A DNA stretch of 64,000 nucleotides from Clostridiales bacterium (GCA_018333995.1 JAGXSG010000021.1:7723-71722); one strand, 5' to 3'. Shown: positions 24,662-48,998, counted from the first letter of the stretch. Notes: generated by a model from the sequence alone, not told the origin. Numbers and translations: made by a program.

Positions 24662-27600
24662 CTAATTCTGGAGCCACACCCTGTCGAGGTAGAGCCGGTG
24701 GTCCTGATGGCCGCCGCTCGTATGGTCGATCTGTATCCGCAGCTCTCCGCTACCTGATACGAACCTCGGGTGAGCGATCGGATACGTGTACAATCCGTTG
24801 ACGCTCGCGGCAGGCAGCTTGCCGAGGGTGACCCAGCCCGGCGTCGCCGCTGCAAAGTCCCACGCCCGCACCACCACATTATGGCCAAGCGCCACGCCCG
24901 CCGGGTCGTAGCGGCCCCACAGCCGCAACGCCACGGGTGTGGCGGTCAATCCCGTGAAGCCGATCTCCACTCGCATCGCGGGTGAACCCTGCCGCTCATC
25001 AACGACGTAGTACGCACCGTCTTGATGGAGCACGTCGGCGAGTCCCCCCGTGACGCCATCGTTGACCGGAGCGGTGATCGCGGTTGGCCCCGCCTCCCCG
25101 ACGATACGGCTGTACGCGTTCGCGGTGCTACCGAGATGGCACGACGTGTAGCACGCACCGCCATTAGGGGCTGCGTCCACCCAGTCCACATCGGAACGAA
25201 TGAGGTAGCGGTTCACGCTTCCGTGATTGGTGTGGCATGTCTGGCAACTCAGGCGAAACTCGTCCACGTGGCGCGCGTGAAGCTGTGCGCCACTTGTCGC
25301 GTCGTAAAACCGGCTGACCTGGGGCGAACCGTCTGTGCCATCACGGTAGACCCCAGAGGCGTGACACCGGTAGCACAACATCCCCGCGTCTCCAGGCTCG
25401 ATACCGATGACCGACGCTTTGAGCAATGGAGACGCCGGACTCGTGTGCGGGCCGATCGGCTGGGACGCGCTCGCGTTACCGTGACAATCGACACAGTAGA
25501 TGCGCGCGCCCGAGGCCGGATGATCGCCCGTGACTGGATGCGCCGAGCCGCCAAGAGCCACCGAATCGAACTCAGCGGCCACGTCGCGCGGCGAGCCGCC
25601 CCACGTGGCGGGGCCGTGGCACTTGAAGCACGTCTCGTACTCGTAGTCGACACGCGGCTTGAGTGTCCCGGTCACTGGATCGTAGCCAGACGATCCTTTG
25701 AGCACACCGTAGGCGACGGGCGCGACCGCGGCCGAACCGTCGGCCACATGGACATTGTGGCAGTCGACGCACTCAACGTGGCGCGGGAACGCTCCCTGCT
25801 CCCCGGACACGTGCGCTCCCGCTACGGCGCTCGCGGGATGACGGCTACGGCCTACCGGGCCAAGATCGGCCACCACGATGCCTGGCGTCGTCCCCGCAAG
25901 CTCGACACCGCCTGCGGGGGCAGTCTCGTTAATGACGAACGTGGCACCGTCGCGGACGAGCGTCTGGAGCGATGGTGGCACGGAGACACCGGGGGTGCGA
26001 GAGAAAGTTCCCGCATTGGCAATCGCGATCTCCGCGACGCCATCGCCGTTGACGTCTCCAGCGGCTAGCGCGGCGGACGCGACTCCCATTCCCGTCTCGA
26101 CATCGACACGTGCACCGAGACCGGTCGCACCGGTCTCGAAGATGGTCACGGCGTTCATCCCCGACTCATTGCGGACCGCTACCGCGACACCCGGAACAGA
26201 TCCCGCCATGAACGGGCCAATTACCGTGTCCCACGCGCGAGCGCCGACGGTGCCAAAGACAGCCCGGGTCGCCTCGGGAACGGCGTCAGCCGATGCTGGC
26301 GCGTACACCGAAATACTCGGTGTAGCGGCGCCCGCATCCGCCACGGCGATGCCTGCGGCTCCTCCCGCGAGAACAGGGCCGATGGAGGGGCCGCGCGGCT
26401 CAGGGTGCAGCGTCTCAAATGAAGTGACCGCGACGGTCGCCGTATCCGCCTGGCTCACGACGTACACGGCCCACGGGCTGTCTGTCGCTGCCGCTGACCT
26501 TGCCGTCACCACGAGCTGATCGGGTGCGATGCCAAGACCGAGAGTGCCGCCCGCGATACCGGTTGCGTCATAGCCCAACGGAAACGACGTGGCGAGCGCT
26601 GATGTGAGCGTCGTGCCGTCGTGGCGGTAGAAGCGCAGCGTACTTGCGCCATCGGCGTCCACGCTTACGACCGCCGCCTCAGGCCTGCCGCTCGCGTCCA
26701 GCAAAAAATCCCCCGCCGTAAGCAACGAGGCGGTAGCCTCCAGCGAGTACGACGTGGCCGCGATACCGTCGAGCAGGTTGTAGCGGTAGACGTGGACACG
26801 GCCGGGGGAGCCGACGGAAGGGTCAGCGACCACGAGATCGTGCTCACCGGCCGCCGCGTCACCATCGATGCCACCGTACGCCACGGCAACGGAGCCGCTC
26901 CTGGCTTCAGGAGCGGACGGGACGTAGCGTCGCGGACCCTCGAGCGCGCGAGGGGCAGGGGTATTCGCAGGGGTCCACACGTGGAGCGAGCTATACGCGT
27001 GCGGAAGGACGAGGGGATCGTACGCGACCACGACCTCGTCTCCGGCAAGGTCAGTCGGCACCGCCATCGCCTTAAAATCGGTAGCGGCCGTTTGGCCATC
27101 ATGACAGCGATAGCACAGTTCGCGGCCCTCGGCGTCGGCGAGCGCGGTGATGACCCCGCCTCGGCCGTCCTCGCGACCCATCGGGTTGTGGCACGACTGG
27201 CACTCGCCCGCCAGACGCGTGCTCTCTCTTGACGCCCATTCGCCGAGCGGCGCGACCGTCGCTATGGTAGAACCGTGCGACGAAGCGGTGTACGTCGCCT
27301 CTCCGCTCCACGCGGTTCCCGCACCGGCCAGCGTATGGCACACGTAGCACATCGTGCGATCATTCGAAGCAATCGTCACCGTCGCCGGCGCTGACGGGGG
27401 TGAGAAACGGGTGCGGATGAGCGGAGCGATCGCCGATCCATGCGGCTCGTGGCACACACCGCACGTGATCTGCGCGGCACCTGCTCGCGGCGTGAGTCCA
27501 GCGTGTGCGGTGTCGCGATAGACGGTAAGGCCGCGGAAAGCGCTCGGCGCGCGCGCCTCGAAGTGACACGTTGCGCAGAACTCCTCGGCAGTGTTTCGCT

Positions 27601-28129
27601 CCGTCCCGTCTGAGGTCAACGCACGCAAAAGCGCCTGCCACGGTTCATCCGTCGGCGTGCGCGCTGCACCGTGAGCGTCGTGGCAGCTGCTGCACTGTTT
27701 GGGAGTGGGCCCATAGGCGGACGTGTCCGGTGCGAGCACGTGCGCCGATGCGTGCGCAAAATCATCTTGGACGCCCGTGCCCGATCCGAGCGTGTCGATG
27801 CCGTGACACGCGAAACACAGCGTCGTGTCCCCCGCGCCGGTAGGCTCGGTGATAACAAGCGCGGAGCCGGTGGTTTCCCAGGTACCCGGCATAGTGCGCT
27901 CCACCACGCCAGGCGCGGTATGGGCGCGATGGCACATCGCACACGCTTCGGGAGTGTCCGCGTCGACGACATGCGGCGCGGCGGAACCAAACGCGAGAGC
28001 GGGCGCTGCGACATAGAGGCACGCCGTGAGCACGAAAACCACGCAGCTCGCGAACGACGGCCTCACCTTACCCCGTATTCCCACCTCGGCGTACGTACGA
28101 GCCGTACGGACGCCGCGACCATCCGTCAT
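24662..28129 (-). CDS. Large secreted multihaem c-type cytochrome (13 CxxCH + 1 CxxxCH) with central FG-GAP/VCBS-like propeller region and C-terminal beta-sandwich-like domain
   Basis: 8 CxxCH in the N-terminal third and 5 CxxCH plus CYTSCH in the C-terminal third; central region with GDVNGDGVAEIAIAN-type repeats; signal/anchor FASCVVFVLTACLYVAAPALAFG; ATG at 28129 preceded by GGAAGAGG. Confidence 0.8.
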   Translation of the reverse strand: MTDGRGVRTARTYAEVGIRGKVRPSFASCVVFVLTACLYVAAPALAFGSAAPHVVDADTPEACAMCHRAHTAPGVVERTMPGTWETTGSALVITEPTGAGDTTLCFACHGIDTLGSGTGVQDDFAHASAHVLAPDTSAYGPTPKQCSSCHDAHGAARTPTDEPWQALLRALTSDGTERNTAEEFCATCHFEARAPSAFRGLTVYRDTAHAGLTPRAGAAQITCGVCHEPHGSAIAPLIRTRFSPPSAPATVTIASNDRTMCYVCHTLAGAGTAWSGEATYTASSHGSTIATVAPLGEWASRESTRLAGECQSCHNPMGREDGRGGVITALADAEGRELCYRCHDGQTAATDFKAMAVPTDLAGDEVVVAYDPLVLPHAYSSLHVWTPANTPAPRALEGPRRYVPSAPEARSGSVAVAYGGIDGDAAAGEHDLVVADPSVGSPGRVHVYRYNLLDGIAATSYSLEATASLLTAGDFLLDASGRPEAAVVSVDADGASTLRFYRHDGTTLTSALATSFPLGYDATGIAGGTLGLGIAPDQLVVTARSAAATDSPWAVYVVSQADTATVAVTSFETLHPEPRGPSIGPVLAGGAAGIAVADAGAATPSISVYAPASADAVPEATRAVFGTVGARAWDTVIGPFMAGSVPGVAVAVRNESGMNAVTIFETGATGLGARVDVETGMGVASAALAAGDVNGDGVAEIAIANAGTFSRTPGVSVPPSLQTLVRDGATFVINETAPAGGVELAGTTPGIVVADLGPVGRSRHPASAVAGAHVSGEQGAFPRHVECVDCHNVHVADGSAAVAPVAYGVLKGSSGYDPVTGTLKPRVDYEYETCFKCHGPATWGGSPRDVAAEFDSVALGGSAHPVTGDHPASGARIYCVDCHGNASASQPIGPHTSPASPLLKASVIGIEPGDAGMLCYRCHASGVYRDGTDGSPQVSRFYDATSGAQLHARHVDEFRLSCQTCHTNHGSVNRYLIRSDVDWVDAAPNGGACYTSCHLGSTANAYSRIVGEAGPTAITAPVNDGVTGGLADVLHQDGAYYVVDERQGSPAMRVEIGFTGLTATPVALRLWGRYDPAGVALGHNVVVRAWDFAAATPGWVTLGKLPAASVNGLYTYPIAHPRFVSGSGELRIQIDHTSGGHQDHRLYLDRVWLQN

Positions 28130-28235
28130 CGGCCTCTTCCGTTCTTGGTGCCTCGGCGGGTCATGCCGGCGACCAGACCCGAGAACCTTCCGGCCCAGTA
28201 TACCCGTCAAAGCCACGCACCGCACCGGTCAGGAC

Positions 28236-31200
28236 CTACTCTACCTGTGCACGCACCTGGTCGCGCGTCTGCTGAGTAAGCACGGAGGTACCGCCGAGAA
28301 AGCGGACCTCGTCGATCGCGTTCCTGTTAGCGGCAAGCGCGTCTCCCGTCACAGAAGTAAGGCTCGCCGAGTGAGTGAGAAGCATCACGGACCCAGCTTG
28401 GGCCTGCATAACGCCGCCAGCAAGCGCGTCGGGGAAGTTTTGCCCGGTGGCGAGCGCAACCCTAGTCCAGTCCAGCCCTACCGTCTCGGCAAACTGCGCG
28501 ATATCGACCGCCGTCGAGTAGCGGTCGGCGCCATAGCGACGCTCGACCTTAATCGCCCCGAACGCCGCCGCGAGCGAGTCGTACGACAGCGCGCTCACCG
28601 CGCCCTCGCCGCCCAAAACGATGACCCTCTTGACTCCGTGTCCCTTCATCGCCGCGATGGTCGCGGCATTCACCGCGTCAGATGTGTCGAACAGGTAGAG
28701 CGGCCACCCCTTTGCGGCGGCGATAGGCGCTGCGGCAAGGGAGTCAGGAAACGTGCGGCCTGTAGCGACGAAGGCGGTACCGTCCCAGCCAGTGTTCTCT
28801 GCCACAATACGCGCGGCGATCTCTCGGGCGGTCTCGTAACGGTGCGTCCCCTGGAATCGTTGCACGTCAAGACCCATCTGTGCGAGCGTGCGCGACACGG
28901 CGCTATCGACGGCCGCGCTGCCCCCGACGATGACGACCCGATCAGCCCCGAGACGCACGATCTGGTCGCGAGCTTCCGCGGACAGAAACGCTCTGCGCGT
29001 CAACAGAAGGGCCGCCCCACGCACGCCGGCTAGGCCAGACGCCGAGAGCGCGTCGGGAAACGACTCGCCCGAGGCGAGCACCACAGTGCGCCTGCCGTCA
29101 GGTCCTCGCGGCATCGGGCTGGCGGGAAACGCGATCGCGGTCGCGCGCGCGGCGGTCGCGTACCTGTTCGCACCCGCGACCTCGGTAAACGCTGGCGGCA
29201 GATCGAGCCGCACCTCACGCGTGCCCTGCGACGAGTTGCCAAGGGAGTCAGTTGCCCAAAAGTGGATGGTGTGGACACCCGAACGCGATATCACGATATC
29301 CGCCGAGGCGCCCGCGACCGGCACCCAAGGAGCACTCGGATCGAGGCGGTACGCGAGGTGCGCCACATGTCCTGCGTGCGAGTCCGCCGCCGCTATCCGG
29401 ACAGTGCCTGCGAGCGGTTGCTGCGAAACCACCGTTGCGGTGACCACAGGTGCGGTCACGTCGACACGTACCTGGACCGTTGCCGCGGCGCTCCACACAT
29501 CGGCGTCTCTGGCACGCACGTACACGGTATGGGTTCCGCTCGGGACGCCGCTCAGGGTGGCCGAGGTCTCCGTCGTCATCACCTCGAGGGCGGCTGCGGG
29601 GTCAAGCGAGTACCAGTAGCCCCTGATACCGGTGCCAGACGCTTCCCACCCAAGCGCGATCGAGTCGTTTCCGTACCACGCAGTGGAAACCGGATGGCTC
29701 GTTGAGCTCAATGCGGTTATCTCGGGCGGAGCGGGCGCGCCTGGTGAGCGCAACACGACCTCCATCGAGCCTGACCGCTCGTTTCCCGCACGGTCGGTCG
29801 CACGATACGCAAGCTCGTACGTCCCAATCGCATCGAAGTACAGCGTTGACGAGGTTCCCATGACCGGCGTCCATACGCCACCGCCAATGCGGTACTCAAA
29901 CCCGGTAACGCCCGAATGCGCATCGGAAACTGACAGGTTCACCGCGACGGGTTGCCCCTCGTAGATATAGCCGCTTGCATTGATGTCGTGCGAGAAGACC
30001 GGGGGCGCGGTATCGACACGCACTGGCAGAGGATCACTCGGCGGCCCCCACTGGCCCCACACGTCAAGCGCTCTGACCCGCACATACCACTCACCGCTCG
30101 CTTGCGCGGTCACGCCAGCGGAAGGGGAGCTCACGCCACACATCAGTGTGGTCGGCGGCACCGCTGCAGGAGAGGCATCAAGCACGTACGAGTACCCGAC
30201 GATGTACTCCGGGTTGCCGGCGTCCCACACGAGGCTCACTGCCGTTTGAGACTTCCACGCCGACGGGTCGGGATGCGACGATGAGACCAGGCCTGTGACA
30301 ACAGGCGGAGGTGCGGCGAAGTCAGCGCGTTCCCACGTCGCGCCATCGCTCGAATACAAAATGACGCCAACGCCGCCCACCGCCACGGCCTCAGAAGTGC
30401 CTGGACGCGCGGCGATTCCCCTGAGATCGAACGAGGAGACGGCCTGCGCGCTCCACGACGCGCCACCGTTGGTCGTGCTGATGATCCTCCCCGAAGGCCC
30501 TACCGCCCACGCGCGGTTCCCGTCGGACATCGCGACGCTCCTCAAGTCGACGGTCACCCCCGTCGCCGTCGCGGTCCATGCATCCCCGCCGTTCACGGTG
30601 CGCCACGCTCTGCCGCCCGCGCCCACGACCACGCCCGCGCTCGACGTTCCAAACGCGATGCCAAGAAGCGGTCCAGCGTTCGCGAACGCGGTCTTGTCCT
30701 GGGATTGCCACTGTCCAAACAGCCTGGTGACCGGATCGTACGCTCGCGTCCACACGAAACCGTTGTTGGCGACAGGAGCGTCACGGTTGGCCTGGTAGCG
30801 ATCGTGTCCAGCTACCCACGCCCTCTCAGGACCCGCCGCGCCAATTCGGACATCCACCGAATAGAACTCACCCATGCCGAGGAATACCGGCTCATTGTGC
30901 GTAATGGGGTCGAGATACTCCCTGGCCTGGAAGAGCGTCGCCCACTCGCCGTAGAGGACGGGCGGGAAGCGCCGGAACATAAGCGTTGCGGCCGATGACG
31001 ACGTTCCCTGTCGCCCCGCTGCAAGTCCCGTCATCCCTTCACCGCCGGAGAGGCTTTCGCTGATCACCGCAAGATCGAACACCGCCCCGGGACCCTGCGA
31101 AGGGAAGATGCTCTGCGCTGTTCCGGTCGAACCGTGAGGGTACGCCGGTGCCCACGTCTTGCCACCGTCGGCAGTGTGAAAGAGCACCCCCGCGCGTGAG

Positions 31201-31514
31201 ATCGTCCATCCGCGATTCGCGTCGATAAACGACACTCCCGTCAGTTCATGCGTGCCACCAGGCATGACGGCCGCCCGCACCCACGTCCCCGGCTTGCCGC
31301 CCTCAGTCGAGCGCACGACCGTTCCCGAGGACCCCACGGCAACGACAAGCTGGCTGGTCGCGTACGTTACCGCATTGAGACTGGCCGAGGTGATTCGCAC
31401 GGTGGAAGCGGTAACCGCATGGGCCTCCATTGGGGTGGCGAGCGGAAACATCGAAAGCGCGAGCGCCCATGCGAGAAGAACTCTCGCGGAAGCATCCATC
31501 ACGTGATTCAACAT
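28236..31514 (-). CDS. Cell-wall-anchored surface protein: BNR/Ycf48-like propeller repeats, Ig/FN3-like modules, 3x CWB2 cell-wall-binding repeats
   Basis: Signal peptide ending MEAHA; repeated GG-x-x-W motifs (ADGGKTW, VNGGDAW, TNGGASW, SDGATW); C-terminal triplet GANRYATAA...SGESFPDALSA / GTHRYETAR...TGRTFPDSLAA / GADRYSTAV...TGQNFPDALAG. Confidence 0.75.
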   Translation of the reverse strand: MLNHVMDASARVLLAWALALSMFPLATPMEAHAVTASTVRITSASLNAVTYATSQLVVAVGSSGTVVRSTEGGKPGTWVRAAVMPGGTHELTGVSFIDANRGWTISRAGVLFHTADGGKTWAPAYPHGSTGTAQSIFPSQGPGAVFDLAVISESLSGGEGMTGLAAGRQGTSSSAATLMFRRFPPVLYGEWATLFQAREYLDPITHNEPVFLGMGEFYSVDVRIGAAGPERAWVAGHDRYQANRDAPVANNGFVWTRAYDPVTRLFGQWQSQDKTAFANAGPLLGIAFGTSSAGVVVGAGGRAWRTVNGGDAWTATATGVTVDLRSVAMSDGNRAWAVGPSGRIISTTNGGASWSAQAVSSFDLRGIAARPGTSEAVAVGGVGVILYSSDGATWERADFAAPPPVVTGLVSSSHPDPSAWKSQTAVSLVWDAGNPEYIVGYSYVLDASPAAVPPTTLMCGVSSPSAGVTAQASGEWYVRVRALDVWGQWGPPSDPLPVRVDTAPPVFSHDINASGYIYEGQPVAVNLSVSDAHSGVTGFEYRIGGGVWTPVMGTSSTLYFDAIGTYELAYRATDRAGNERSGSMEVVLRSPGAPAPPEITALSSTSHPVSTAWYGNDSIALGWEASGTGIRGYWYSLDPAAALEVMTTETSATLSGVPSGTHTVYVRARDADVWSAAATVQVRVDVTAPVVTATVVSQQPLAGTVRIAAADSHAGHVAHLAYRLDPSAPWVPVAGASADIVISRSGVHTIHFWATDSLGNSSQGTREVRLDLPPAFTEVAGANRYATAARATAIAFPASPMPRGPDGRRTVVLASGESFPDALSASGLAGVRGAALLLTRRAFLSAEARDQIVRLGADRVVIVGGSAAVDSAVSRTLAQMGLDVQRFQGTHRYETAREIAARIVAENTGWDGTAFVATGRTFPDSLAAAPIAAAKGWPLYLFDTSDAVNAATIAAMKGHGVKRVIVLGGEGAVSALSYDSLAAAFGAIKVERRYGADRYSTAVDIAQFAETVGLDWTRVALATGQNFPDALAGGVMQAQAGSVMLLTHSASLTSVTGDALAANRNAIDEVRFLGGTSVLTQQTRDQVRAQVE

Positions 31515-31623
31515 GCGACACACCCCTTTAAGTAACGCCGGTGCGGTGCCGGCCGCACAGTACGAGCACATGGAGCACCTAACATGCACACATCAGCAAA
31601 CGACATGCCCCGCATCCGGCCAA

Positions 31624-33225
31624 TCATCCGTCTGCGTCCTCCGGGTCTCTAACAGCACGGTCCCCGTCTGGGCGTGGCGCCGAGTACGCGAACTCCTCAA
31701 CGAATCCGGCCACGTCAAGTACATCGATGCCGCTCGCGGCTGCTACCGCCGCAAGCGATGAGTGCTCGGTAAGTAAGACCCGGTGGCGCCGAGCGAGCGA
31801 GAGCGTCGCCGCGAGCTCAGACCCGAGTTCGAACCTCTCATCGAGCGCGGTCGCATCGGGATGCGAGTACTCAGAGACCTCCGCGGTGGGACCGGGACGG
31901 CGACGCGCTCCATCGGCGGTCTCGGGGGTCACGATGAGGCGCACCGGCCGCCATCCCCTCGAAGCCTGGGCAACATCACGAAGACGGTCGAGCGCCTCAC
32001 GGGAGGCGACGACACGCACGGTCCGGACGAGCGCGAGTAACGCGATTGGCGAGAGGAGAAATGGTGCCGCGATCAAACCGTACCAGCTCGGGCCACCCGG
32101 CCACGCCAAAGGCACGCGAGCGTCCGGAGGGGCCCACTCGAACACCTGAATTCGGGCGTTCCCGGTGTCCGCTACGTAGAGAGCGTCCGCGCTGACCGCG
32201 ACATCGTTTGGAAAGGACAGGCCGCCGGCTCCCAAACCGGGGCCTCCGATCCGTCCGAGTTCCGTCCCGATATCGTTGACAAGGACGACCTCGTGCGAGA
32301 ACGCGTCGACGAGCGCGAAGTGCGGGCGTCTTGCCTGCTCGCTCGGCGGCAAGAGCTCAACTCCCCTGATCAACCTGCCAAGGGGAATCGAACGGACGAT
32401 CGAACCGTCCTCGTCAAGCTCTACGAGACGGCGGCTGTTGCTGTCGGCAACCCAGGTGCGCCCGTCACGCGAGGCGATCCCGTTGGGGTGATCGAACCCG
32501 CCTGGGGTGCCAGGCAGCACGGCTGCAGGCGGTGACACGCCGAGCACCTCACCGGAGCGGTCAAGGTGCCACACACGGTGCCCTGTCTTGGCGGTATCCG
32601 TCACGTGAATCGAGCCATCCTCGGCAAACGCGACCGCTACAGGAGCCCACTCAACCGGCTGGCTTTCAGCATCAACCGGCGTGATCGTCTCGACGAACGA
32701 GCCGTCGAACGCGAACACCATTAGGGCACCTATTCCTCGATCAACGACGATGATCTGCTCGGCGGCCTCGTCGCACGCGATTCCAACCGGAACCTCTAGC
32801 CGCTCTCCTCCAATGGCGCGCGCCGAGATACCCGTGCCCTGAAACGCTACGACGTGCCCCGCGAGCGAGTCGGTGACAAAGACCGTTTCCCCTGCCACGC
32901 ACACTCCCACCGGACGCTGAAGAGGCAATTCCTCCGTCCCGGTGAACTCGTAAGCGAAACGAGGTGTCGCGATGAGCGCGCTTGCCGCGTCAGCGATCAG
33001 CTGCGGTGCCACCTCCCCAGCGAGCAACCGGCGCGCATCCGCCGAAACACCCGCAACGCCCAGTGCGAACGCCGCACATACCGCTACGACCAGCCGTCTT
33101 CGCCTGCGCCGCACTCCTGTGAGCCTGGAGGGGGGGCGGGCGCGATCATGCGCTGATGCGCGGCGGGTGGTCGCGTTCACCGGCTCACGATCCAGCGATC
33201 GCCTTGGCGGCCTCGATGATCGCAC
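31624..33225 (-). CDS. Bitopic NHL-repeat beta-propeller protein with second TM helix and cytoplasmic PIN-like (degenerate) C-terminal domain, paralogue 1
   Basis: Arg-rich N-terminus + TM, NHL-type repeats (VADSNSRRLVELD, VADTGNARIQVF), TM WYGLIAAPFLLSPIALLALV, about 150-aa C-terminal domain; a GTG at 33180 would avoid overlap with the upstream gene. Confidence 0.65.
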   Translation of the reverse strand: MRSSRPPRRSLDREPVNATTRRASAHDRARPPSRLTGVRRRRRRLVVAVCAAFALGVAGVSADARRLLAGEVAPQLIADAASALIATPRFAYEFTGTEELPLQRPVGVCVAGETVFVTDSLAGHVVAFQGTGISARAIGGERLEVPVGIACDEAAEQIIVVDRGIGALMVFAFDGSFVETITPVDAESQPVEWAPVAVAFAEDGSIHVTDTAKTGHRVWHLDRSGEVLGVSPPAAVLPGTPGGFDHPNGIASRDGRTWVADSNSRRLVELDEDGSIVRSIPLGRLIRGVELLPPSEQARRPHFALVDAFSHEVVLVNDIGTELGRIGGPGLGAGGLSFPNDVAVSADALYVADTGNARIQVFEWAPPDARVPLAWPGGPSWYGLIAAPFLLSPIALLALVRTVRVVASREALDRLRDVAQASRGWRPVRLIVTPETADGARRRPGPTAEVSEYSHPDATALDERFELGSELAATLSLARRHRVLLTEHSSLAAVAAASGIDVLDVAGFVEEFAYSAPRPDGDRAVRDPEDADG

Positions 33226-36748: not shown

Positions 36749-36753
36749 TCCAA

Positions 36754-41508: not shown

Positions 41509-41554
41509 AATGAGCCATTTGTCACTTTCGAGCTACGTACTTGCTGTATCGAGC

Positions 41555-41580: not shown

Positions 41581-41714
41581 ATCCACGGATAGGATACCAT
41601 ATGGCGCACCCGTGTCAACCGATGGATCACATACCCTGTACCGTATTCCGCAACGCCGGGGCGCCGCTCGGCCAGGCAGACCGTTGCGTGTGAGACCGTT
41701 CGCGCCTCGTCCCC

Positions 41715-43244
41715 TTATCGGGACCGTTCAGGTGAGGTCCCGAGTACCCGCTCCGCGAACAGGCGCGCATCGTACGCGTCGATGCCGAGCGCGCGAGCTA
41801 CACGCGCGATCTCCGGGTCTTGGGTGCACAACGTCTTCGCGCGCCGGGCAAGCACGAGCAATGCCGCTACGTCATGTGACACGCCGCTTCGATCCATGAG
41901 GTTCTTCGTATCCGAGTCGGAGTAGACCTCCGGGGTGAGCAGATCACCGAGCGCCACGCCGTTGATCTCGCGGCCCTTGTAGCGCTCGAACTCCTCGGCG
42001 GGAACGATCCACCGCCAACGCTTCCTCTCGGCCATCTTGCCGATGAGACCGGCGGCGGCGATCTGCTCGAGGAACTCCTCGGTCACTACGAAACGGCGGC
42101 GGCGCGCCAGGAGCAGCAGGGGAAGAAGCACGAGCGGGCTCAGACAAAACGCCCACTGCACGGGAGTCTCCGGCACGATTGGGACAGGCGCGATAGGATC
42201 AGGCCACCCCCACACCTGCACCTGATGGTTCACCCTGTCGGTGAGGAAAATGAAGCCTCGAGTGTCGACCGCCAGATCGTTGGTGTAGCGGAACTGCCCA
42301 GGCCCCACGCCAGGACCGCCAAAGCTCGCGATCCGCTCACCAGCCGCATCGTAGATGTCGCCCTGGTGAGCAAGCGCATCGGCGACGTAGAGGCGCCCCT
42401 GTCCGTCCATGTCGATGCCGCGCGGAATGCCGGATGTGCGAATAATGCGCTCGAACGCACCCGTCTCGTCGAAGACTTGGATGCGCCTGTTGTTGCTGTC
42501 GGCCACAAACACCAAGCCATCTCTCACCACAATCCCGTTTGGAAAGTAGAAGCGCCCGGGGGCGTCGGTGATCTCCTCGGCGGCCGCGAATCCTCCAAAC
42601 CGCCTGATCTCAACTCCCTGAGGGTCGAATACGATGATTTGGTGAAGGTCGTTGCGGCCCACGTCGCTCACCCAAAGATTGCCCGCATCGTCGAAAGCGA
42701 TCGCAAGCGGTGCCCAAATGCGGGCCTCTTCGGCGTCAGCGGGCTCGACCTTGCGCAGGTACTCGCCGGACGGGCTGAACACGTAAAGCGACCGGTGGCG
42801 GCGGTCCGTGACGTATACCTCGCCGTTGGGAGCGACCTCGACGTACACGGGCGTAACGAGCGACGTCGCGTCTTCGTCATTGATGCCGGAAAACGAGAAC
42901 CGATACTCGCCTTCGACCGTGTAGACCTTCACCTCGCCCGCAGTGGGATCGGTGACGTAGACGAGTCCCTCGGCCGAGACGTCGACACCGAGCGGTTCGC
43001 TCAAAGCGCCATCCCCCTCGGGTCCGGTGATCGAGTACAAGTACTCGGGAGGGGTAACGACCTCCTCGGCGCCTCCCCCGATACCAGGCACGGGAAGGCG
43101 CCGGTAGGTGTTGTGGTAGTAGATCGCCCAAAGCGCCGTGCCGAGAAGGGCGAGGAGCACCAGCAGAGCGACGATCTTGCGTCTGGAGGCCGGCGCGTTA
43201 GAGCGGCCGAAAGGATCACTTTCGTATGTGGGATCGTTTACCAT
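41715..43244 (-). CDS. Bitopic NHL-repeat beta-propeller protein with second TM helix and cytoplasmic PIN-like C-terminal domain, paralogue 2
   Basis: Same architecture as 31624-33225: TM, NHL repeats (VADSNNRRIQVFD, LTDRVNHQVQVW), TM FCLSPLVLLPLLLLA, C-terminal RFVVTEEFLEQ...LCTQDPEIARVARALGIDAYD. Confidence 0.65.
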   Translation of the reverse strand: MVNDPTYESDPFGRSNAPASRRKIVALLVLLALLGTALWAIYYHNTYRRLPVPGIGGGAEEVVTPPEYLYSITGPEGDGALSEPLGVDVSAEGLVYVTDPTAGEVKVYTVEGEYRFSFSGINDEDATSLVTPVYVEVAPNGEVYVTDRRHRSLYVFSPSGEYLRKVEPADAEEARIWAPLAIAFDDAGNLWVSDVGRNDLHQIIVFDPQGVEIRRFGGFAAAEEITDAPGRFYFPNGIVVRDGLVFVADSNNRRIQVFDETGAFERIIRTSGIPRGIDMDGQGRLYVADALAHQGDIYDAAGERIASFGGPGVGPGQFRYTNDLAVDTRGFIFLTDRVNHQVQVWGWPDPIAPVPIVPETPVQWAFCLSPLVLLPLLLLARRRRFVVTEEFLEQIAAAGLIGKMAERKRWRWIVPAEEFERYKGREINGVALGDLLTPEVYSDSDTKNLMDRSGVSHDVAALLVLARRAKTLCTQDPEIARVARALGIDAYDARLFAERVLGTSPERSR

Positions 43245-43256
43245 GAGCGCTTCCCG

Positions 43257-44264
43257 TCACTTCGTGTCTGATAGACGCTCTACGGCCGAGGCGGCCTCGG
43301 CGTCGTCCGGTGCCAGATCGAGTACGCGCTGCCACGCGTCCATTGCCGCATCGAGGTCTCCAGTACTTTCATATAACGTGGCGACCAGCCGCGCGGACTC
43401 AAGATCGGTCGGCTCCAAGGCGCGCGCGATGCGCGCTTCCGTGAGCGCGGCCACTGGGTCGCTCGAGACGAGCGCGCGCGCGGCCTCGAGACGATCCGCG
43501 TGCTGACCAAGCTTCTCAAGCTCCTGAAACGGTTCGCGAACTCCCGGAGGCGCGCCATCCGCCGATGTGCGGAAGCGCTCGGCGGCGGCGGCCACGTATC
43601 CCTCGGCCAGTAGCAGGAGTCCGTAATCGTAGTTGGCCTCGGGCATCACCGGATCGAACATGAGCGCGCTCTCAAGGTAGGTGCGCTGATTCCGTTCCGA
43701 GCCGATCTCCCGATACGCGACTGAGAGCGCGTAGTGGGTGTCGGCGGCCGAGCGGTTGATGCGGAGCGCCTCGTGCAAGGATTGGGCGGCCTCCTCGTAG
43801 CGCTTCTGCTCGAGGAGCGTCATGCCGAGCTGGTGGTACCCGGTCCCGAGCCGCTGGTCAAGGCGTGAGAACTGCCCGCCTTCGAGCTCATCGACGAGCG
43901 TGCGCCAGTATCCCTCGGCGGTCTCCCACTCACCTTGGAACATGGCGATCAGGCCAAGTCCCGTGAGCGCGTCGGGATGGTTCGCCTCAAGCTCCAACGC
44001 GGCGTTGAACTGATCGATGGCCTCCCGTGGCTGTCCTGCCGCGGCGTAGGCCTCGGCAAGCGCGATGCGCAAACCTGCGTCATCCGGACTCTCCTCGATC
44101 GCCGCGATCAAGTTGTCGACCGCACGCGAAGCGGGCGCCCCGCGGCGCTCGGCTGACTGCGTGATCACCACAGAGTACGCAAGGTATCCCACCGCGACGA
44201 CAACAAGCACCGCCGCGCCCTTGATCCCCACATCGAGCCATCGCACGTTGTCAAACATTCTCAT
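43257..44264 (-). CDS. Membrane-anchored TPR-repeat protein
   Basis: N-terminal TM GAAVLVVVAVGYLAYSVVI, then repeated TPR-like helices (A-x3-Y-x-x-A-G...A-x-x-x-F-x-x-A-L). Confidence 0.65.
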   Translation of the reverse strand: MRMFDNVRWLDVGIKGAAVLVVVAVGYLAYSVVITQSAERRGAPASRAVDNLIAAIEESPDDAGLRIALAEAYAAAGQPREAIDQFNAALELEANHPDALTGLGLIAMFQGEWETAEGYWRTLVDELEGGQFSRLDQRLGTGYHQLGMTLLEQKRYEEAAQSLHEALRINRSAADTHYALSVAYREIGSERNQRTYLESALMFDPVMPEANYDYGLLLLAEGYVAAAAERFRTSADGAPPGVREPFQELEKLGQHADRLEAARALVSSDPVAALTEARIARALEPTDLESARLVATLYESTGDLDAAMDAWQRVLDLAPDDAEAASAVERLSDTK

Positions 44265-44309
44265 GACTCACTCACCTCGTCAGCGACGGCCGGGCAGGCG
44301 CACGGCGTT

Positions 44310-45908
44310 TCAGATGTTCAGGTCAGCATGGCACCGGCGGCACAGCTGAGAGCCGGGCCACGGCGCGATTTCGACGTTACGGAAATCGAGAGCACCATGA
44401 CAGTCATAGCAGACACGCAAATCGTGTGCCCCGGTGTCGTACGCTTGACGTCCCGCACCCCGCACCCGCGCGACAGTCAGGCCGATGTGGCAGTCGTCGC
44501 ACACGTACGAACGGCCGACCCGCTCGGCGACATCGAAGTGCACCGCGTGGGAGACGAAGCCCATCCGCCGTATCGCGGTCGGCGGCTCGGTGGTCGCCTC
44601 GGGGTGACACTCGACGCAGTTCTCTGCTCGCAGCTCAGCGTCGCGCACGGACACATGGTGGCACTCCTGACACGTCGCACGGTCGGTGTGGCACACCCCG
44701 CAATCGTCGCGCGAGTAACCGTTGGCCGCGTGCGACGCCAGCCACGCGGTCGGGTGCGGCATGGCCGTCTGGTGACAGCGAGAACACGATTCGCTCGTGT
44801 GACATATCGAACACCCGCCGCGCCCGCCGAGATACGGCGCGCCGTGTTGCGCAATCCACTCGACACGCTCGTGGGTGTCAGGGATCACCTGCGCGCTCAA
44901 GGAGCCATCGGCAAGTTGCCTCTCGCCTCGATGGCATTCGGCGCAAACCGGCGATGTATGACACATCGTGCAGTTGACGAGGTCCTCACCTGCCGGTCCG
45001 CTGTGGTCGCGCGCTATGAAATCAGGTGTGTGATCGGCCGGGACGAGGTTGAAATCGGACGGATGGCACGCAAGGCATTCTTCCGGCGCCACCTCGCCCT
45101 TCCCCGCATGCTGGACGCTGTGGCACCGGTAGCACGAGCGCATCGTAGGCAGCGCGGTCTCGTCGGGAGTGTGGGGAAACGCCTCGTGGCACACCTCGCA
45201 TCGATAGTCACGCTCGAGATGGACGGTGTGGGTGAAGATCAGGCCGTCTTCCGCTAGCCCCTCATCAATCCCCGAGTGACAGAACACGCACTGCCCGATG
45301 GCAACCGGATCCTCCGTACGCACGACGAGCGAGGGCCGGGGTTCCGGCGCTGGAACGACGCGGAGGTAAATCGGCGGAGTGGGAGGAGTGTCGACCTCCA
45401 TCTCCTGGTGACACGCATCGCACTGGGCACGCGCGTCGTGGCACATCAAGCAATCATTGAACCCGCCGCGCGAAACCGCCCGGGCGTGCGGTTGGGCGAT
45501 CCAGTCATCGCCGTGATACGCGGGCCGCAAGCGGAACGCACTTGTGTGGCAGTAGCCGCAGTCATCGGCGGCGATAACTCCCGCGCCACTGTGCGCAAGA
45601 CCATGGCACGCGAAACACGTCCGCATCGAAGGAGAGTACGTCACGCCCGCCTCGTGAGCCGGACGGACGTGACACACTGAACACTCGAGCTTGATGTGAA
45701 CGCCGTGACTGAACACAAGCTCAGGGTTAGGGGACTCGGCGATCCGCGCATGACACGCCGAGCAGGTACTCGCGGTAACCGGTCCAGTGAGATCGATCTC
45801 ACTGGGTATCGTCGTGCCTGCGCCCTGTACTGAGCCGGACACGGCGAAGATGGCCGCCATGATGGCGACCGCCGCAATCGTGTGCGCATGTCGGCGGCGG
45901 ATGCTCAT
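44310..45908 (-). CDS. Secreted 20-haem c-type cytochrome built from repeated about 6-haem modules
   Basis: 20 CxxCH motifs counted; modules 1 and 2 are collinear (CSACH..FSHGVH..CSVCH..MRTCFACH..CGYCH..CLMCH..CDACH versus CVFCH..FTHTVH..CEVCH..MRSCYRCH..CLACH..CTMCH..CAECH); signal peptide. Confidence 0.85.
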   Translation of the reverse strand: MSIRRRHAHTIAAVAIMAAIFAVSGSVQGAGTTIPSEIDLTGPVTASTCSACHARIAESPNPELVFSHGVHIKLECSVCHVRPAHEAGVTYSPSMRTCFACHGLAHSGAGVIAADDCGYCHTSAFRLRPAYHGDDWIAQPHARAVSRGGFNDCLMCHDARAQCDACHQEMEVDTPPTPPIYLRVVPAPEPRPSLVVRTEDPVAIGQCVFCHSGIDEGLAEDGLIFTHTVHLERDYRCEVCHEAFPHTPDETALPTMRSCYRCHSVQHAGKGEVAPEECLACHPSDFNLVPADHTPDFIARDHSGPAGEDLVNCTMCHTSPVCAECHRGERQLADGSLSAQVIPDTHERVEWIAQHGAPYLGGRGGCSICHTSESCSRCHQTAMPHPTAWLASHAANGYSRDDCGVCHTDRATCQECHHVSVRDAELRAENCVECHPEATTEPPTAIRRMGFVSHAVHFDVAERVGRSYVCDDCHIGLTVARVRGAGRQAYDTGAHDLRVCYDCHGALDFRNVEIAPWPGSQLCRRCHADLNI

Positions 45909-45917
45909 CAGTCGACG

Positions 45918-47180
45918 CTAACTCCCACCCCTCACCGAACGCCACCACCTGAGAAGCGGGTTCTCGTCCCTCGCGACGCTCTGGCCGTGAATGAGCCCCG
46001 CCGAGTGTTCTATGAACGCCTCTCCGGAACCGCGATGGCACTCCCCGCACGTCGCGACGGCGTTGACCGGGTACATCATCGAGTTCGGGTCGCTTACCGG
46101 CAGCGCCTCGTGAGAGCCGTGGCAGTCCCAGCATGAAGGGGTGTCTCGGCCAGCGCGGCGCTTGTAAGGCGCACCGTGATAGTAGTCATCGTACGTGGCC
46201 CACTCGGCCGAGTGACACTGAGCGCACATCCGCTCCGACGCGAAGTGCAACTCGCGCCTCGCGGCGTCCGTATCGAGGCGCGCGATACTGTGTCCTCCGT
46301 GACACGAACCGCACGTCGCGGATGTGTAGTCGCCCTCGGCGATCAGTGTCCCGTGAATCGACGCTTCGTACGCCGAGACGAGTTCAGCCTGCGCGGGCCG
46401 CTCGCCGTACGCACCCTCGTGGCACGCGAGACACGCCAGGCCCGCATTCACCTGCCACAGCGGTGTCGCCCCACGCTCGCCGGTGTAGTTGAAGTCGACG
46501 TGGCACTCGACACACGTGATGTCTCGATGCGCTGACCAGTCGAGAACGTCTTCATCGACGAAGTACGACTCCGAGCCGCCTCGCGACGCTTTGGCGAGAT
46601 CCGGATTGCCGTGACACGCGAGACATCCGTCGCCCACGTCGTACGTCAAGCCGTCAGAGCGCCATTCGACGTCACGCTCGGCATGGCACGTATCACAATC
46701 GGCACGATCGTGGCACATCGCACACTCCGTGCGAAGAGCGTTCTCGGCGGGATCCACGTGAGGCGTCTCCGCCCACTCGGCAACGTGGGACTCGGGACGC
46801 AGCCGTTCGACGCGCGCACCATGGCACTTCTCACAGGTGTCCCCCGCGATCAATCCCATCGGCCCATGCTGGAGGCCATGACAGTTCCAGCATTCGACCA
46901 TCGCCGGAACATCCGTTCCGGCCGGGGTGTGGGGGTAGCTCAAGTGACAGTTGGAGCACGCGAACCACATGTGCGTCGCGTGAGTGAAGTCGACAAGATC
47001 GCTCTCCACTTCCGCGATCTGGCCGTGGCAGACCTTGCACGCGCTCGCAACCACGGGAGCGCCAGTGTCGATCGTCACCTGTTCGGCGTACGCATGCGGA
47101 ACTCTCGTGAGTGCCGCCACGCACACAAGCGCGACGGCGAAGGCGAGGATGCCGGTCCACGCCTTGAGCCTGTAGGTCAT
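45918..47180 (-). CDS. Secreted/anchored 13-haem c-type cytochrome (6-haem module + 7-haem module)
   Basis: 13 CxxCH; the N-terminal six align with the 20-haem module and the C-terminal seven align with the 7-haem protein (shared YDDYYHG/YNDYYHG, CWDCH, IHGQ); ATG at 47180 after GGGGAG; TM GILAFAVALVCVAAL. Confidence 0.85.
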   Translation of the reverse strand: MTYRLKAWTGILAFAVALVCVAALTRVPHAYAEQVTIDTGAPVVASACKVCHGQIAEVESDLVDFTHATHMWFACSNCHLSYPHTPAGTDVPAMVECWNCHGLQHGPMGLIAGDTCEKCHGARVERLRPESHVAEWAETPHVDPAENALRTECAMCHDRADCDTCHAERDVEWRSDGLTYDVGDGCLACHGNPDLAKASRGGSESYFVDEDVLDWSAHRDITCVECHVDFNYTGERGATPLWQVNAGLACLACHEGAYGERPAQAELVSAYEASIHGTLIAEGDYTSATCGSCHGGHSIARLDTDAARRELHFASERMCAQCHSAEWATYDDYYHGAPYKRRAGRDTPSCWDCHGSHEALPVSDPNSMMYPVNAVATCGECHRGSGEAFIEHSAGLIHGQSVARDENPLLRWWRSVRGGS

Positions 47181-47238
47181 CTCCCCTACCCTTTCTGATT
47201 CCGTGTCAAATACTGACCGCGGGACACCTCCCGCGAGC

Positions 47239-48138
47239 TCATCGGCTGAACATGTCAGCGACCGCGGAGCGGAGCCGCTGGATAAGGCTGTAGAGGGGGT
47301 TGGCGGCGAGCATCTCGCCCTGGCCATGTATTAGCTCGGCGTACTCAAGATACCCCTCGTTGACATCGCCCAGATGACACGCGCCGCACGTCTGGGCGAG
47401 GCGGTCGGGGTGCACTCGCGAGCGTCGGTCGTCCGACGGATATATGTCGTGGTAGCCGTGGCAATCCCAGCACGCGGGGGCATCGAGCGCACCCCTGTGG
47501 TAGGCCCTGCCGTGGTAGTAATCGTTGTAGTTCTCCCAGTGCTCCTCATGACAGCGCCCGCAGACCTCCCACCCGTTGGCGTGCATACCGCTCTGTCCTG
47601 CGGGGTTGTCTGTGAGCGCGACGATGTCGTGCCCGCCGTGACAATCACCGCACAGCGGGACGATCGTCGTTTCAGCTGACGGCGTCACGCCGCCAGCGTC
47701 CACTTCTCCCCTGTGCACGCCTTGACCCAACGCGCGGTTCTGATCCTGGTGACAGTTCTTGCACGCCGAGCGGGACACTCGTTGCCAATCCTCACCGGAT
47801 TGGACGTGAGGCGCCGTAAACGCGAAGTCAAGGTGGCAGCCAGCGCACTGAACGGCAGCGTGGGGACCCGCCTCTAGCTGCGCGGGGTCCACGTAAAAGC
47901 TTCTAAGCCCATCCTCTTTCAGGCGGATGAGGTTCTCGTCGCCATGGCAGACCATGCACCCGGCTTTCGCAGCGGTCGGAAGGGTGAAGTCGACGTCGTA
48001 GCCGTTCACCGGCACCACGTGAGTCCGCGTCGCGTCGTCTTCGACAGCATGAGCGGACCCGTGAACCGCGACCATCGCGCACGCGAACGCCAAACTCGCA
48101 ATCGCAGTCGCCGCGTATGCGCGCGCACTGAGCTTCAT
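47239..48138 (-). CDS. Secreted heptahaem c-type cytochrome
   Basis: 7 CxxCH (CMVCH, CAGCH, CKNCH, CGDCH, CGRCH, CWDCH, CGACH); signal peptide; start overlaps the stop of the cytochrome b gene. Confidence 0.85.
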   Translation of the reverse strand: MKLSARAYAATAIASLAFACAMVAVHGSAHAVEDDATRTHVVPVNGYDVDFTLPTAAKAGCMVCHGDENLIRLKEDGLRSFYVDPAQLEAGPHAAVQCAGCHLDFAFTAPHVQSGEDWQRVSRSACKNCHQDQNRALGQGVHRGEVDAGGVTPSAETTIVPLCGDCHGGHDIVALTDNPAGQSGMHANGWEVCGRCHEEHWENYNDYYHGRAYHRGALDAPACWDCHGYHDIYPSDDRRSRVHPDRLAQTCGACHLGDVNEGYLEYAELIHGQGEMLAANPLYSLIQRLRSAVADMFSR

Positions 48139-48998
48139 TCACGCTCACCCATCGACGGCGCGAGTGCCCCGGTGCCGCTAGCGTGAGTGGACGTAGGCGG
48201 GTGATCGTGGCCGCCGTGGCTGTCGTGAGAGCTTGGGAGACCGAAGAAGCTCTGAAACGCCGGAAAGTCCTCGGTCATCGAAAGATACGCGTGGATCGTC
48301 GTCAATATGATGAACAGCCACGTGATGATGTAGTGCACCGTCCGAGCGTACCACCCCGCGAGATCAGTCGAGCCGAGAAGGGCGCCGAGCCACCAGCCGA
48401 GGAGAAGGTCGCGAGGACTCATGTCGATCAGCGGAAGTGGCGCCACGACGAGCGCAAAGCCGGTGAACGCTTGAACGATCAGGAGCGGCACAAACAAGGT
48501 GTACGTGCCCTTCTGCATGACGTTGTACTTGCCGAGATGCGGCTTGGAACTCTTCACAAAGATGTAGTAGAGGACGACTTTGGGCGCGGTCACGATGTCT
48601 TGCTTGGTGATCGCGAACTCCCTGTAGTCGCGTTGCTTCGCGAAGAACGCATACCACAAACGCCAGATCAGGTTGATCGTCACGATGATCATGAACACGT
48701 AGTGGATCCACCGCATGGCGGTACGGCCGCCGTCAAAAAACGGGAACCGGATGTAAAGACCGGTGAATCCAAGCGCGAACATCGAGAACACGTGCTGGAA
48801 ATGGAGGAACTTCGGGAGGAACGGAATCGGCGGGCCGTCGTGGTGCGGCCACTGCTTGTGGACAAACCTCTTCTTGATACGCCCGCTAAGGATATTGCCG
48901 AAGAAGTGGACCGTGAGCGCCACGACCATCACGACATACAATGCCGTGAATCCGACATCCAGCCAGACGTTCAGTTCTGTCAGTGCGATCTCTGACAC
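48135..48998 (-). CDS. Membrane dihaem cytochrome b (HydC/FdnI/PhsC, PF01292-like) - probable quinol/quinone-interacting subunit
   Basis: 287 aa, 4-5 TM with conserved His (VHFFGN, FLHFQHVF, RWIHYVF, TVHYIITW...TTIHAY); GTG start after GGGAG; His-rich C-terminal tail. Confidence 0.7.
   Translation of the reverse strand: MSEIALTELNVWLDVGFTALYVVMVVALTVHFFGNILSGRIKKRFVHKQWPHHDGPPIPFLPKFLHFQHVFSMFALGFTGLYIRFPFFDGGRTAMRWIHYVFMIIVTINLIWRLWYAFFAKQRDYREFAITKQDIVTAPKVVLYYIFVKSSKPHLGKYNVMQKGTYTLFVPLLIVQAFTGFALVVAPLPLIDMSPRDLLLGWWLGALLGSTDLAGWYARTVHYIITWLFIILTTIHAYLSMTEDFPAFQSFFGLPSSHDSHGGHDHPPTSTHASGTGALAPSMGERE

Follow-up and report, generated by a model that had tools for sequence, protein, structure and literature searches.

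A formate dehydrogenase within an OmcS-family cytochrome operon of Anaerosomatales: a probable extracellular-electron-transfer cluster

Comparison with described systems

Two published gene clusters, MCL4079376-90 of Parvivirga hydrogeniphila and 1c0400-1c0413 of Coriobacteriaceae sp. EMTCatB1, are orthologous to a set of 15 minus-strand genes, closely spaced or overlapping, at positions 24662-48998 of a 64,000-nucleotide stretch (hereafter the window; GCA_018333995.1 JAGXSG010000021.1:7723-71722) of a metagenome contig from a member of Anaerosomatales (OPB41; Coriobacteriia). We propose, with a probability of roughly 0.7, that this locus is an extracellular-electron-transfer cluster of monoderm Anaerosomatales, which are subsurface actinobacteria, in which a formate dehydrogenase (FDH) is built into an OmcS-family cytochrome operon; it probably serves electron exchange between the cell and a mineral or electrode.

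P. hydrogeniphila, an obligate Fe(III) reducer, uses formate or H2 for growth and takes ferrihydrite or Fe(III) citrate as acceptor, and its authors regarded MCL4079376-90 as the probable main determinant of Fe(III) reduction (PMC9686372); on formate with Fe(III) citrate its doubling time is ~3 h. EMTCatB1 dominates a thermophilic methane-producing biocathode, and the authors of the 2021 study took 1c0406-1c0408 (the FDH and a hexahaem cytochrome) as one enzyme and tied FdhA/B and the hexahaem protein to electron uptake from the cathode. An OmcS homologue with all six haem motifs had already been reported from an anode-biofilm Coriobacteriales genome (Arbour et al. 2020, PMC7399161). An earlier note on the window, made from the sequence alone, had held that, as far as its author knew, the accessory set of NHL-PIN-like paralogues, FG-GAP cytochrome and CWB2 protein is not a described conduit; the cluster as such is not undescribed, as the OmcS homologue (2020), the expression of the FDH and cytochromes (2021) and the Parvivirga cluster (2022) are all published.

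The Parvivirga hexahaem protein (MCL4079381.1) is 59% identical to that of the window, adjoins the FDH MCL4079382-3 and falls with its EMTCatB1 counterpart (GAV31709.1) into one 90%-identity cluster of hexahaem homologues. Both described clusters come from a monoderm lineage and have the FDH adjacent, and the EMTCatB1 locus (L020) has the same gene order as the window. The window lineage differs in heading its first transcription unit with a cytochrome b, a 7-haem and a 13-haem cytochrome, where EMTCatB1 has an FKBP-type prolyl isomerase. This isomerase (1c0414; 245 versus 42 transcripts per million, TPM) flanks the first multihaem gene, is induced with it and recalls the chaperone OscH of Geobacter. 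Neither the Parvivirga nor the EMTCatB1 paper dissects the cluster; OmcS, riboswitches and operators go unmentioned in both, as do the NHL, TPR and transporter proteins.

The OmcS/osc system of Geobacter sulfurreducens is alike in the homology of OmcS to the hexahaem protein, including an equivalent of His16, and in the very large c7-type multihaem cytochromes, beta-propellers and TPR protein encoded nearby. According to work cited in PMC13194489, OscH has a proposed role in folding, OscEFG in secretion and OscD in morphology. Unlike Geobacter, the window host is monoderm, its hexahaem gene has an FDH inserted ahead of it and a beta-barrel or channel component is absent from the window; the 15 cluster genes include no OscH-type prolyl isomerase. 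Next to the beta-propeller-like OscD and the channel-like OscEFG of Geobacter, the window has two NHL propellers and a TPR protein; the likeness of this set to nanowire companion clusters appears to be one of architecture. Multihaem cytochromes, two NHL beta-propellers and a small filament-type or outer cytochrome also occur together in the OmcE clusters of Desulfuromonadia and in Desulfovibrio ferrophilus (DFE_0448-0451 and DFE_0461-0465), but these systems are diderm, include a large beta-barrel and lipoprotein propellers and have no FDH, whereas the window propellers have two transmembrane (TM) helices and a cytoplasmic domain.

Among periplasmic formate dehydrogenases, FdnGHI of Escherichia coli and FdhABC3 of Desulfovibrio share with the window a Mo/W catalytic subunit that contains selenocysteine (Sec) and is exported by the twin-arginine (Tat) route, and a ferredoxin-like beta subunit, which in Fdn likewise has a C-terminal helix; FdhABC3 is an established case of a c-type cytochrome as FDH partner. 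The window differs from both in that no FdnI gene follows fdhB, the apparent partner is an OmcS-family hexahaem protein and not a c3 cytochrome, and FdhA is ~160 residues longer. Geobacter CbcL is a cytochrome b fused to a multihaem c domain; in the window, too, a di-haem cytochrome b (HyaC/FdnI family) has a multihaem c-type partner, but as two overlapping genes instead of a fusion and with 7 haems. The conduits of Thermincola potens and Carboxydothermus ferrireducens are similar in placing multihaem cytochromes at the membrane, wall and surface of monoderm hosts; a text search of the C. ferrireducens paper gave no mention of formate dehydrogenase, NHL proteins or OmcS.

The literature examined yielded no report of an FDH inside an OmcS-homologue operon across dozens of species, of the FDH-linked transporter and lipoprotein, of the tungsten-type riboswitches, of an operator common to three operons or of a monoderm parallel to nanowire companion clusters; these are new here, as are the retained inter-subunit histidine of the hexahaem protein and the DMT-transporter fold of the 502-residue protein.

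Hexahaem cytochrome, formate dehydrogenase and their conserved context

The cluster comprises two units (Table 1). Unit 1 (48998-41715) encodes the cytochrome b, the 7-, 13- and 20-haem cytochromes, a TPR protein and the propeller protein NHL1; unit 2 (~41590-24662) encodes FdhA, FdhB, the 6-haem cytochrome, a 502-residue membrane protein, a lipoprotein-like protein, NHL2, a BNR/Ig/3xCWB2 protein and an FG-GAP cytochrome. The earlier note had described the units as back-to-back; two units are supported, but they are arranged in tandem on one strand. Its inventory was borne out, the 'PIN-like' label apart, from the 15 minus-strand genes and the Sec-containing FDH to the CWB2, NHL, FG-GAP, BNR and TPR proteins and the haem motifs, which total exactly 59 CxxCH (7+13+20+6+13). 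What it overlooked is the OmcS-family nature of the 6-haem protein, and the riboswitches.

A family profile of the hexahaem protein matched OmcS in the PDB (6EF8/6NEF, E = 3.2e-10); the alignment spans residues 8-369 of OmcS and keeps five haem motifs in register, and hhalign gave the pair a probability of 98.4%; the next matches, which were weak, are OmcE-type filament subunits (7TFS, 1e-3; 9YUQ, 2e-4). The OmcS motif CEGCHTMH, which holds His16, aligns with CAGCHRAH of the hexahaem protein, His16 falling on His51, which is invariant. CxxCHxxH, whose second histidine is the one aligned with His16, is present in 118/118 homologues, and six CxxCH motifs and the terminal CxxCH in 117/118 each. 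In OmcS filament structures His16 ligates a haem of the neighbouring subunit, and His51 is its equivalent by alignment. Given the profile match, the hhalign result and the conservation of the motifs and of His16, the protein can be assigned by sequence to the OmcS family, with the predicted inter-subunit histidine kept.

FdhA has the features of the FDH-N type: a Tat signal, molybdenum/tungsten bis(pyranopterin guanine dinucleotide) (Mo/W-bisPGD) domains and a Sec(Cys)-His active site. Its Sec codon is an in-frame TGA at 40503-40501 within the motif HQARV-U-HSS, directly followed by a hairpin (~40503-40440; -37.5 kcal/mol, z = -5.05) that resembles a selenocysteine insertion sequence. The top three NCBIfam matches are all FDH families, with FDH-N alpha the best, at 424 against an equivalog cut-off of 814. 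No FdnI-type cytochrome b gamma subunit is encoded beside fdhAB; the hexahaem gene follows fdhB, and the only cytochrome b lies in the upstream unit.

Conservation was assessed by scanning GTDB species representatives with the hexahaem alignment, followed by tblastn with all window proteins, which gave 74 evaluable loci (numbered here with the prefix L). In 57 of these FdhB lies directly upstream of the hexahaem gene (FDH-type loci) and 17 are without FDH. The order 20-haem, TPR, NHL, FdhA, FdhB, 6-haem, membrane protein, lipoprotein is kept in most FDH-type loci: where evaluable, NHL1 was found in 42/42, the TPR protein in 41/41, the lipoprotein in 41/42, FdhA in 46/48, the 502-residue membrane protein in 42/44 and the 20-haem cytochrome in 34/37, compared with 23/35 for NHL2, 18/32 for the FG-GAP cytochrome and 12/33 for the CWB2 protein. 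All 20 haem motifs are kept in 68/69 full-length homologues of the 20-haem protein. The loci without FDH run from 20-haem, TPR and NHL directly to the hexahaem gene, and have the membrane protein in 0/15 and the lipoprotein in 2/15, so that FdhAB, the transporter-like membrane protein and the lipoprotein seem to have been inserted into a cytochrome core that has a variable periphery. The comparative genomics proposed in the earlier note therefore finds the two units syntenic across many species, while its 'integrated 24-kb system' is better described as a conserved core with patchily distributed CWB2, NHL2 and FG-GAP proteins around it.

In longer views of four loci, L079 and L081 carry upstream the cofactor genes, a desulfurase, a selenium/sulfur (Se/S) carrier, the cytochrome b and the 7- and 13-haem cytochromes; L078 is without the cytochrome b and the 13-haem protein; and L080 has neither an FDH nor the cofactor genes, and its hexahaem gene appears fragmented. 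The FDH-less examples sometimes include the cytochrome b and 7-haem genes and have no DMT-like protein; the operator described below is kept before the hexahaem gene in L059, L062, L067, L072, L074 and L075, and no exact copy of it was found in L004, L006, L031, L077 and L080.

Within the 572-nt gap before fdhA, a promoter-like site is followed by a perfect palindrome of 26 nt and by a riboswitch of the molybdenum cofactor (Moco) family. A search of the window for the core TGTAAC-N4-GTTAC with <=1 mismatch gave eight matches, against 0.13 expected, and all of them lie in three intergenic places, ahead of fdhA, of the cytochrome b gene and of the tungstate transporter. One palindromic operator precedes the cytochrome, FDH and tungstate/cofactor operons, and the LysR-family protein encoded beside its third copy is a candidate binder for all three. 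A narrower core, GTAAC-N4-GTTAC, occurs between NHL1 and fdhA (or the hexahaem gene) in most related loci, and also before the cytochrome b gene in L079. The fdhA-leader riboswitch is present in 6/6 FDH-type relatives tested and absent from one FDH-less relative. Its counterpart at the transporter falls inside a long open reading frame (58576-59595), and the true start of the TupA-like gene is therefore placed near 59451. The P3-less class to which both riboswitches belong correlates with a tungsten cofactor (Regulski et al. 2008, PMC2408646), and we infer that the FDH uses tungsten.

The block of cofactor genes upstream of unit 1, also found upstream in L078, L079 and L081, is predicted to supply cofactor synthesis and sulfuration for the FDH. 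Within it, the cysteine desulfurase and Se/S carrier are kept as a pair in L079 and L081 (L078 has the desulfurase only) and are likely to be the sulfur or selenium donor for FdhD-dependent sulfuration of the cofactor.

The host assignment agrees with the distribution of the proteins: near-full-length homologues of the 20-haem protein (n = 73) and homologues of the hexahaem protein (n = 1710) bear almost exclusively Coriobacteriia/Anaerosomatales names, and those of the 502-residue membrane protein are likewise nearly confined to Coriobacteriia/Anaerosomatales (OPB41) genomes. Both cultured members of Anaerosomatales have Gram-positive walls in thin section (PMC9686372). Domain scans found no outer-membrane beta-barrel porin domain in any of the 15 cluster proteins. 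A monoderm host and a cluster devoid of outer-membrane porin-cytochrome parts, both suggested earlier, are thereby upheld.

Proposed electron flow and competing explanations

In the proposed mechanism, FdhAB on the outer face of the membrane would interconvert formate and CO2. Electrons would pass between FdhAB and the hexahaem protein, its first partner, the gene of which appears translationally coupled to fdhB. Beyond it, the route would lead over the c7-type multihaem proteins and the FG-GAP cytochrome with its MtrC-like domain, cross the wall and end at an electrode or an Fe(III) mineral. The cytochrome b/7-haem pair may tie the cytochrome pool to the membrane (through quinone, if present), and the NHL and TPR proteins may be assembly or scaffold factors. 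The whole would form a reversible connection of the extracytoplasmic formate/CO2 couple to solids beyond the wall. We infer the order of the carriers, the direction of flow, the coupling to quinone, polymerisation and the roles of the transporter, NHL, TPR and CWB2 proteins.

Physiology and expression in the two relatives bear on this proposal. The claim of a formate-to-acceptor system gains from the growth of Parvivirga, with its orthologous cluster, on formate with ferrihydrite. For EMTCatB1, the supplementary table of the 2021 study gives TPM values at closed circuit, at open circuit and with inhibitor, from two noisy replicates per condition; in that order, they are 2716, 900 and 437 for the hexahaem gene, 1242, 167 and 81 for FdhB and 1253, 194 and 194 for FdhA. 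The remaining genes are expressed at lower levels: 142, 11 and 51 for the 20-haem cytochrome, 273, 29 and 38 for the next multihaem, 297, 139 and 137 for the distal multihaem, 85, 23 and 33 for NHL1 and 57, 24 and 30 for TPR. All genes from 1c0400 to 1c0415 are higher at closed than at open circuit, and FdhA, FdhB and the hexahaem gene are in the top 10% of transcripts. Together with the operator common to both units, this common direction favours the co-regulation that had been suggested from the window.

Several observations weigh against the proposed extracellular-electron-transfer role. Conservation across the family does not extend to the CWB2 protein, NHL2 or the FG-GAP cytochrome. A single-sequence search of the PDB with the hexahaem protein gave no match, OmcS being reached by the family profile only, and the AlphaFold2 model of the protein is poor, with a predicted local distance difference test score (pLDDT) of 49. 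One closed-circuit replicate of the EMTCatB1 hexahaem gene (345) lies under both open-circuit values, each condition having two replicates. The best expression data were obtained on a cathode, where electrons are taken up and flow is the reverse; the direction of flow differs between Parvivirga and EMTCatB1, the two informative organisms. The Parvivirga authors assigned its FDH to CO2 fixation, and quinones went undetected in both Anaerosomatales isolates (PMC9686372). Where formate is oxidized outside and the acceptor also lies outside, no charge crosses the membrane, so that energy conservation would need a loop through the cytochrome b and quinone, and the cytochrome b is absent from L078. 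The 'quinone-level' cytochrome b of the earlier note is therefore retained as to the HyaC/FdnI-family gene, which is present and encodes a candidate quinone-reactive membrane module, and is weakened as to quinone by this locus and these isolates.

The need for such a loop would be answered if the cluster were an ordinary respiratory FDH, with the hexahaem protein as a monomeric cytochrome subunit of FdhAB, comparable to the c3 subunit of Desulfovibrio FdhABC3, and the multihaem proteins feeding an FdnI/HyaC-type cytochrome b and a quinone redox loop towards any acceptor; extracellular transfer would then not be its purpose. The family of the cytochrome b, the FdnH-like C-terminal helix of FdhB and the treatment of 1c0406-1c0408 as one enzyme agree with this. 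However, 17 species-level loci keep the 20-haem, TPR, NHL and hexahaem genes without an FDH, so the hexahaem protein is not primarily an FDH subunit; 59 haems, an MtrC-like domain, a wall-binding protein and OmcS homology exceed what a quinone reductase needs; the missing cytochrome b of L078 and the missing quinones of the isolates count against a redox loop; and the sulfur-reducing Anaerosoma grows on formate, yet the cluster is not reproduced in its genome. We consider this explanation quite unlikely. That the same hardware works mainly in reverse, its FDH reducing CO2 to formate for assimilation or interspecies transfer with electrons drawn from a cathode, a partner cell, Fe(0) or an Fe(II) mineral, is unlikely; this reading fits the hardware and is at bottom a matter of direction. 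Tungsten/selenocysteine FDHs are good CO2 reductases, and the P3-less riboswitches point to a tungsten cofactor; the DMT-type protein that co-occurs with the FDH could move formate; EMTCatB1 dominates its biocathode, where FdhA, FdhB and the hexahaem gene are higher at closed circuit; and formate is the starting point of the reductive glycine pathway by which both isolates fix CO2 (PMC9686372). Against it, Parvivirga, which carries an orthologous cluster, oxidizes formate and is obliged to reduce Fe(III), and a formate transporter is lacking in the methanogen that partners EMTCatB1 on the cathode.

It is very improbable that the cytochromes feed a reductase of a soluble substrate (nitrite, sulfite or polysulfide) in place of solids, a possibility that the earlier note had itself raised. 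Nitrite-reduction genes are reported elsewhere in the EMTCatB1 genome and the cytochromes give weak, sub-threshold NrfB-like and NapC-like matches, but these fall far under the curated cut-offs, the 64-kb window contains no gene for such an enzyme, no CxxCK motif occurs in the cluster cytochromes and the flanks hold cofactor, chemotaxis and defence genes. Fortuitous adjacency of independent operons might be argued from the separate promoters of the units and from the ten-fold distance between the FDH-hexahaem transcripts of EMTCatB1 and the rest; with gene order kept at 40-60% protein identity in dozens of species, a shared and conserved operator and transcripts that move in a common direction, it is hardly credible.

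Within the extracellular-electron-transfer reading, the hexahaem protein may, by analogy, polymerise as OmcS does. A more specific version is possible, although we hold it to be doubtful: a hexahaem filament that spans the wall or reaches past it would be charged directly by the membrane-anchored Sec/tungsten FdhAB of the same operon, an enzyme hard-wired to a nanowire, and would be assembled with the help of the NHL and TPR proteins in the absence of an outer-membrane channel. The filaments that Parvivirga forms with ferrihydrite, and not with Fe(III) citrate (PMC9686372), would then be that polymer.

The assembly of cytochrome nanowires has been studied almost only in diderm Geobacter, in which outer-membrane secretion confuses what polymerisation needs. 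With the present cluster comes a monoderm counterpart, of which one member, Parvivirga, is in culture and grows fast, and in which an OmcS relative shares an operon with its likely electron source. Should the coupling be real, it would give a minimal and testable path by which electrons of a soluble C1 substrate reach a solid acceptor, or those of a cathode reach formate; it would account for OPB41/Anaerosomatales in iron-reducing aquifers, on anodes and on biocathodes; and bioelectrochemistry that makes or consumes formate would gain a candidate module. Concrete handles on its regulation are the tungsten-type riboswitch and the operator common to the three operons.

Accessory proteins and neighbouring genes

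Table 1. Genes and regulatory elements of the cluster and its cofactor-supply flank, in window positions
Feature	Position	Strand	Remarks
LysR-family regulator, selenium-metabolism-associated type	59705-60607	-	NF040786, 264.5 bits, cut-off 250
Operator, third copy, doubled	59622-59646	.	Between LysR gene and tungstate-transporter operon
Moco/Tuco (molybdenum/tungsten cofactor) riboswitch (RF01055) without P3	59453-59576	-	Before tungstate transporter; 55.2 bits, gathering score 36
Tungstate ABC transporter, TupA/TupB/WtpC-like	56732-59451	-	Best matches TupA, TupB, WtpC
Cofactor genes	49203-56708	-	MobA-FdhD fusion, MoeA, MobB, MoaA, MoaC, MOSC, MogA-like, cysteine desulfurase, Se/S carrier
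Class V cysteine desulfurase and 81-residue Se/S carrier	49203-50662	-	Directly upstream of cytochrome b; selenocysteine-lyase-like is second-best match
Operator copy	49135-49150	.	~140 nt upstream of cytochrome b start
Di-haem cytochrome b, HyaC/FdnI family	48998-48135	-	PF01292, 56.7 bits; four TM helices; H-x13-H in last helix
7-haem c-type cytochrome	48138-47239	-	Start overlaps cytochrome b stop by 4 nt
13-haem c-type cytochrome	47180-45918	-	c7/c3-type repeats
20-haem c-type cytochrome	45908-44310	-	c7-type repeats
TPR protein, membrane-anchored	44264-43257	-	Sub-threshold resemblance to CcmH/CycH TPR domain
NHL1	43244-41715	-	N-terminal TM (signal-anchor), outside NHL beta-propeller, second TM, conserved cytoplasmic domain of ~125 residues
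Promoter-like site TTGACA-16-TATCCT	41618-41591	-	Upstream of palindrome
Palindrome, 26 nt, perfect (operator)	41580-41555	-	Between promoter-like site and riboswitch
Moco/Tuco riboswitch (RF01055) without P3	41518-41398	-	fdhA leader; 68.8 bits, gathering score 36
FdhA, Mo/W-bisPGD FDH catalytic subunit	41142-37630	-	Tat signal; Sec
FdhB, 4Fe-4S subunit	37614-36754	-	Fer4_11; one C-terminal TM helix, residues 252-270
OmcS-family hexahaem cytochrome (by sequence)	36757-35600	-	Six CxxCH; start overlaps fdhB stop by 4 nt
502-residue polytopic membrane protein	35603-34095	-	Predicted DMT/EamA-type 10-TM fold and C-terminal extension; co-occurs with FDH
Lipoprotein-like protein, 295 residues	34072-33185	-	Without family; co-occurs with FDH
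NHL2	33225-31624	-	NHL1 paralogue, same architecture
BNR/Ycf48-like propeller, Ig-like and 3xCWB2 wall-binding protein, secreted	31589-28236	-	Variable component
FG-GAP cytochrome, 1187 residues	28225-24662	-	13 CxxCH and one CxxxCH; variable component

The 502-residue membrane protein has no Pfam or NCBIfam sequence match. Its model is confident (pLDDT 89.8), with YddG (5I20) as the best Foldseek match (E = 2e-5, target TM-score 0.66); further matches of its first ten helices are nucleotide-sugar transporters, LicB, TPT and PfCRT. On the strength of the model, it is predicted to be an FDH-tied transporter-like protein of the DMT fold, for which formate or a flavin would be guesses at the substrate. 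A role as an NrfD/PsrC-like quinone-reactive anchor of the FDH was rejected, the confident model being that of a DMT transporter fold.

NHL1 and NHL2 are 32% identical over 466 residues (E = 7e-42), in accordance with the paralogy claimed in the earlier note. The 'PIN-like' character that it gave to them has less behind it: the best PDB profile match of the C-terminal domain, a PIN-type RNase P, is weak (E = 0.47), and Pfam PIN, PIN_4 and PIN_5 match this domain weakly in 5/27 members (E 0.06-0.11).

The FG-GAP cytochrome consists of an N-terminal TM helix, eight haems with an MtrC/MtrF-like domain, the FG-GAP region, five CxxCH and one CxxxCH motifs and a C-terminal beta-rich domain; its start is likely to be M33 at 28129. 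The MtrC/MtrF-like haem domain (PF22113, cut-off 30 bits) matches it with 46.8 bits, and the 20-haem, hexahaem and 7-haem proteins with 44.4, 34.5 and 32.2 bits, respectively. For the FG-GAP cytochrome, the 20-haem protein and the cytochrome b, no usable relatives emerged from sequence searches of the PDB, and the cytochrome b scores 21.5 bits against the FDH-gamma family (cut-off 115.85). DmsE, GSU2203, NrfB, NapC and ExtN were also considered as identities for the cytochromes; all scores are far below the NCBIfam cut-offs and therefore none was assigned.

The FG-GAP cytochrome gene ends 7 nt from the stop of a convergent YkuD L,D-transpeptidase gene (23575-24654, plus strand). Just past the cluster lie genes for a CheA-like protein with Hpt, P2 and CheC domains, CheB and a PAS-GGDEF cyclase (19604-23522, minus strand). 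Farther on, at 11890-19000 (minus strand), a type IIG restriction-methyltransferase adjoins an HKD(PLD)-Snf2 helicase, their best secondary matches being DISARM DrmD and DrmMI, respectively; a RelA/SpoT-domain protein (9751-10884) weakly matches the candidate system PDC-S33; and a Hachiman defence pair (5300-9522, minus strand) consists of the helicase HamB (1316 bits) and HamA (285 bits). Two plus-strand open reading frames (49180-49938 and 50300-51502), antisense to real minus-strand genes and with no family match, are probably artefacts of the 64% G+C content.

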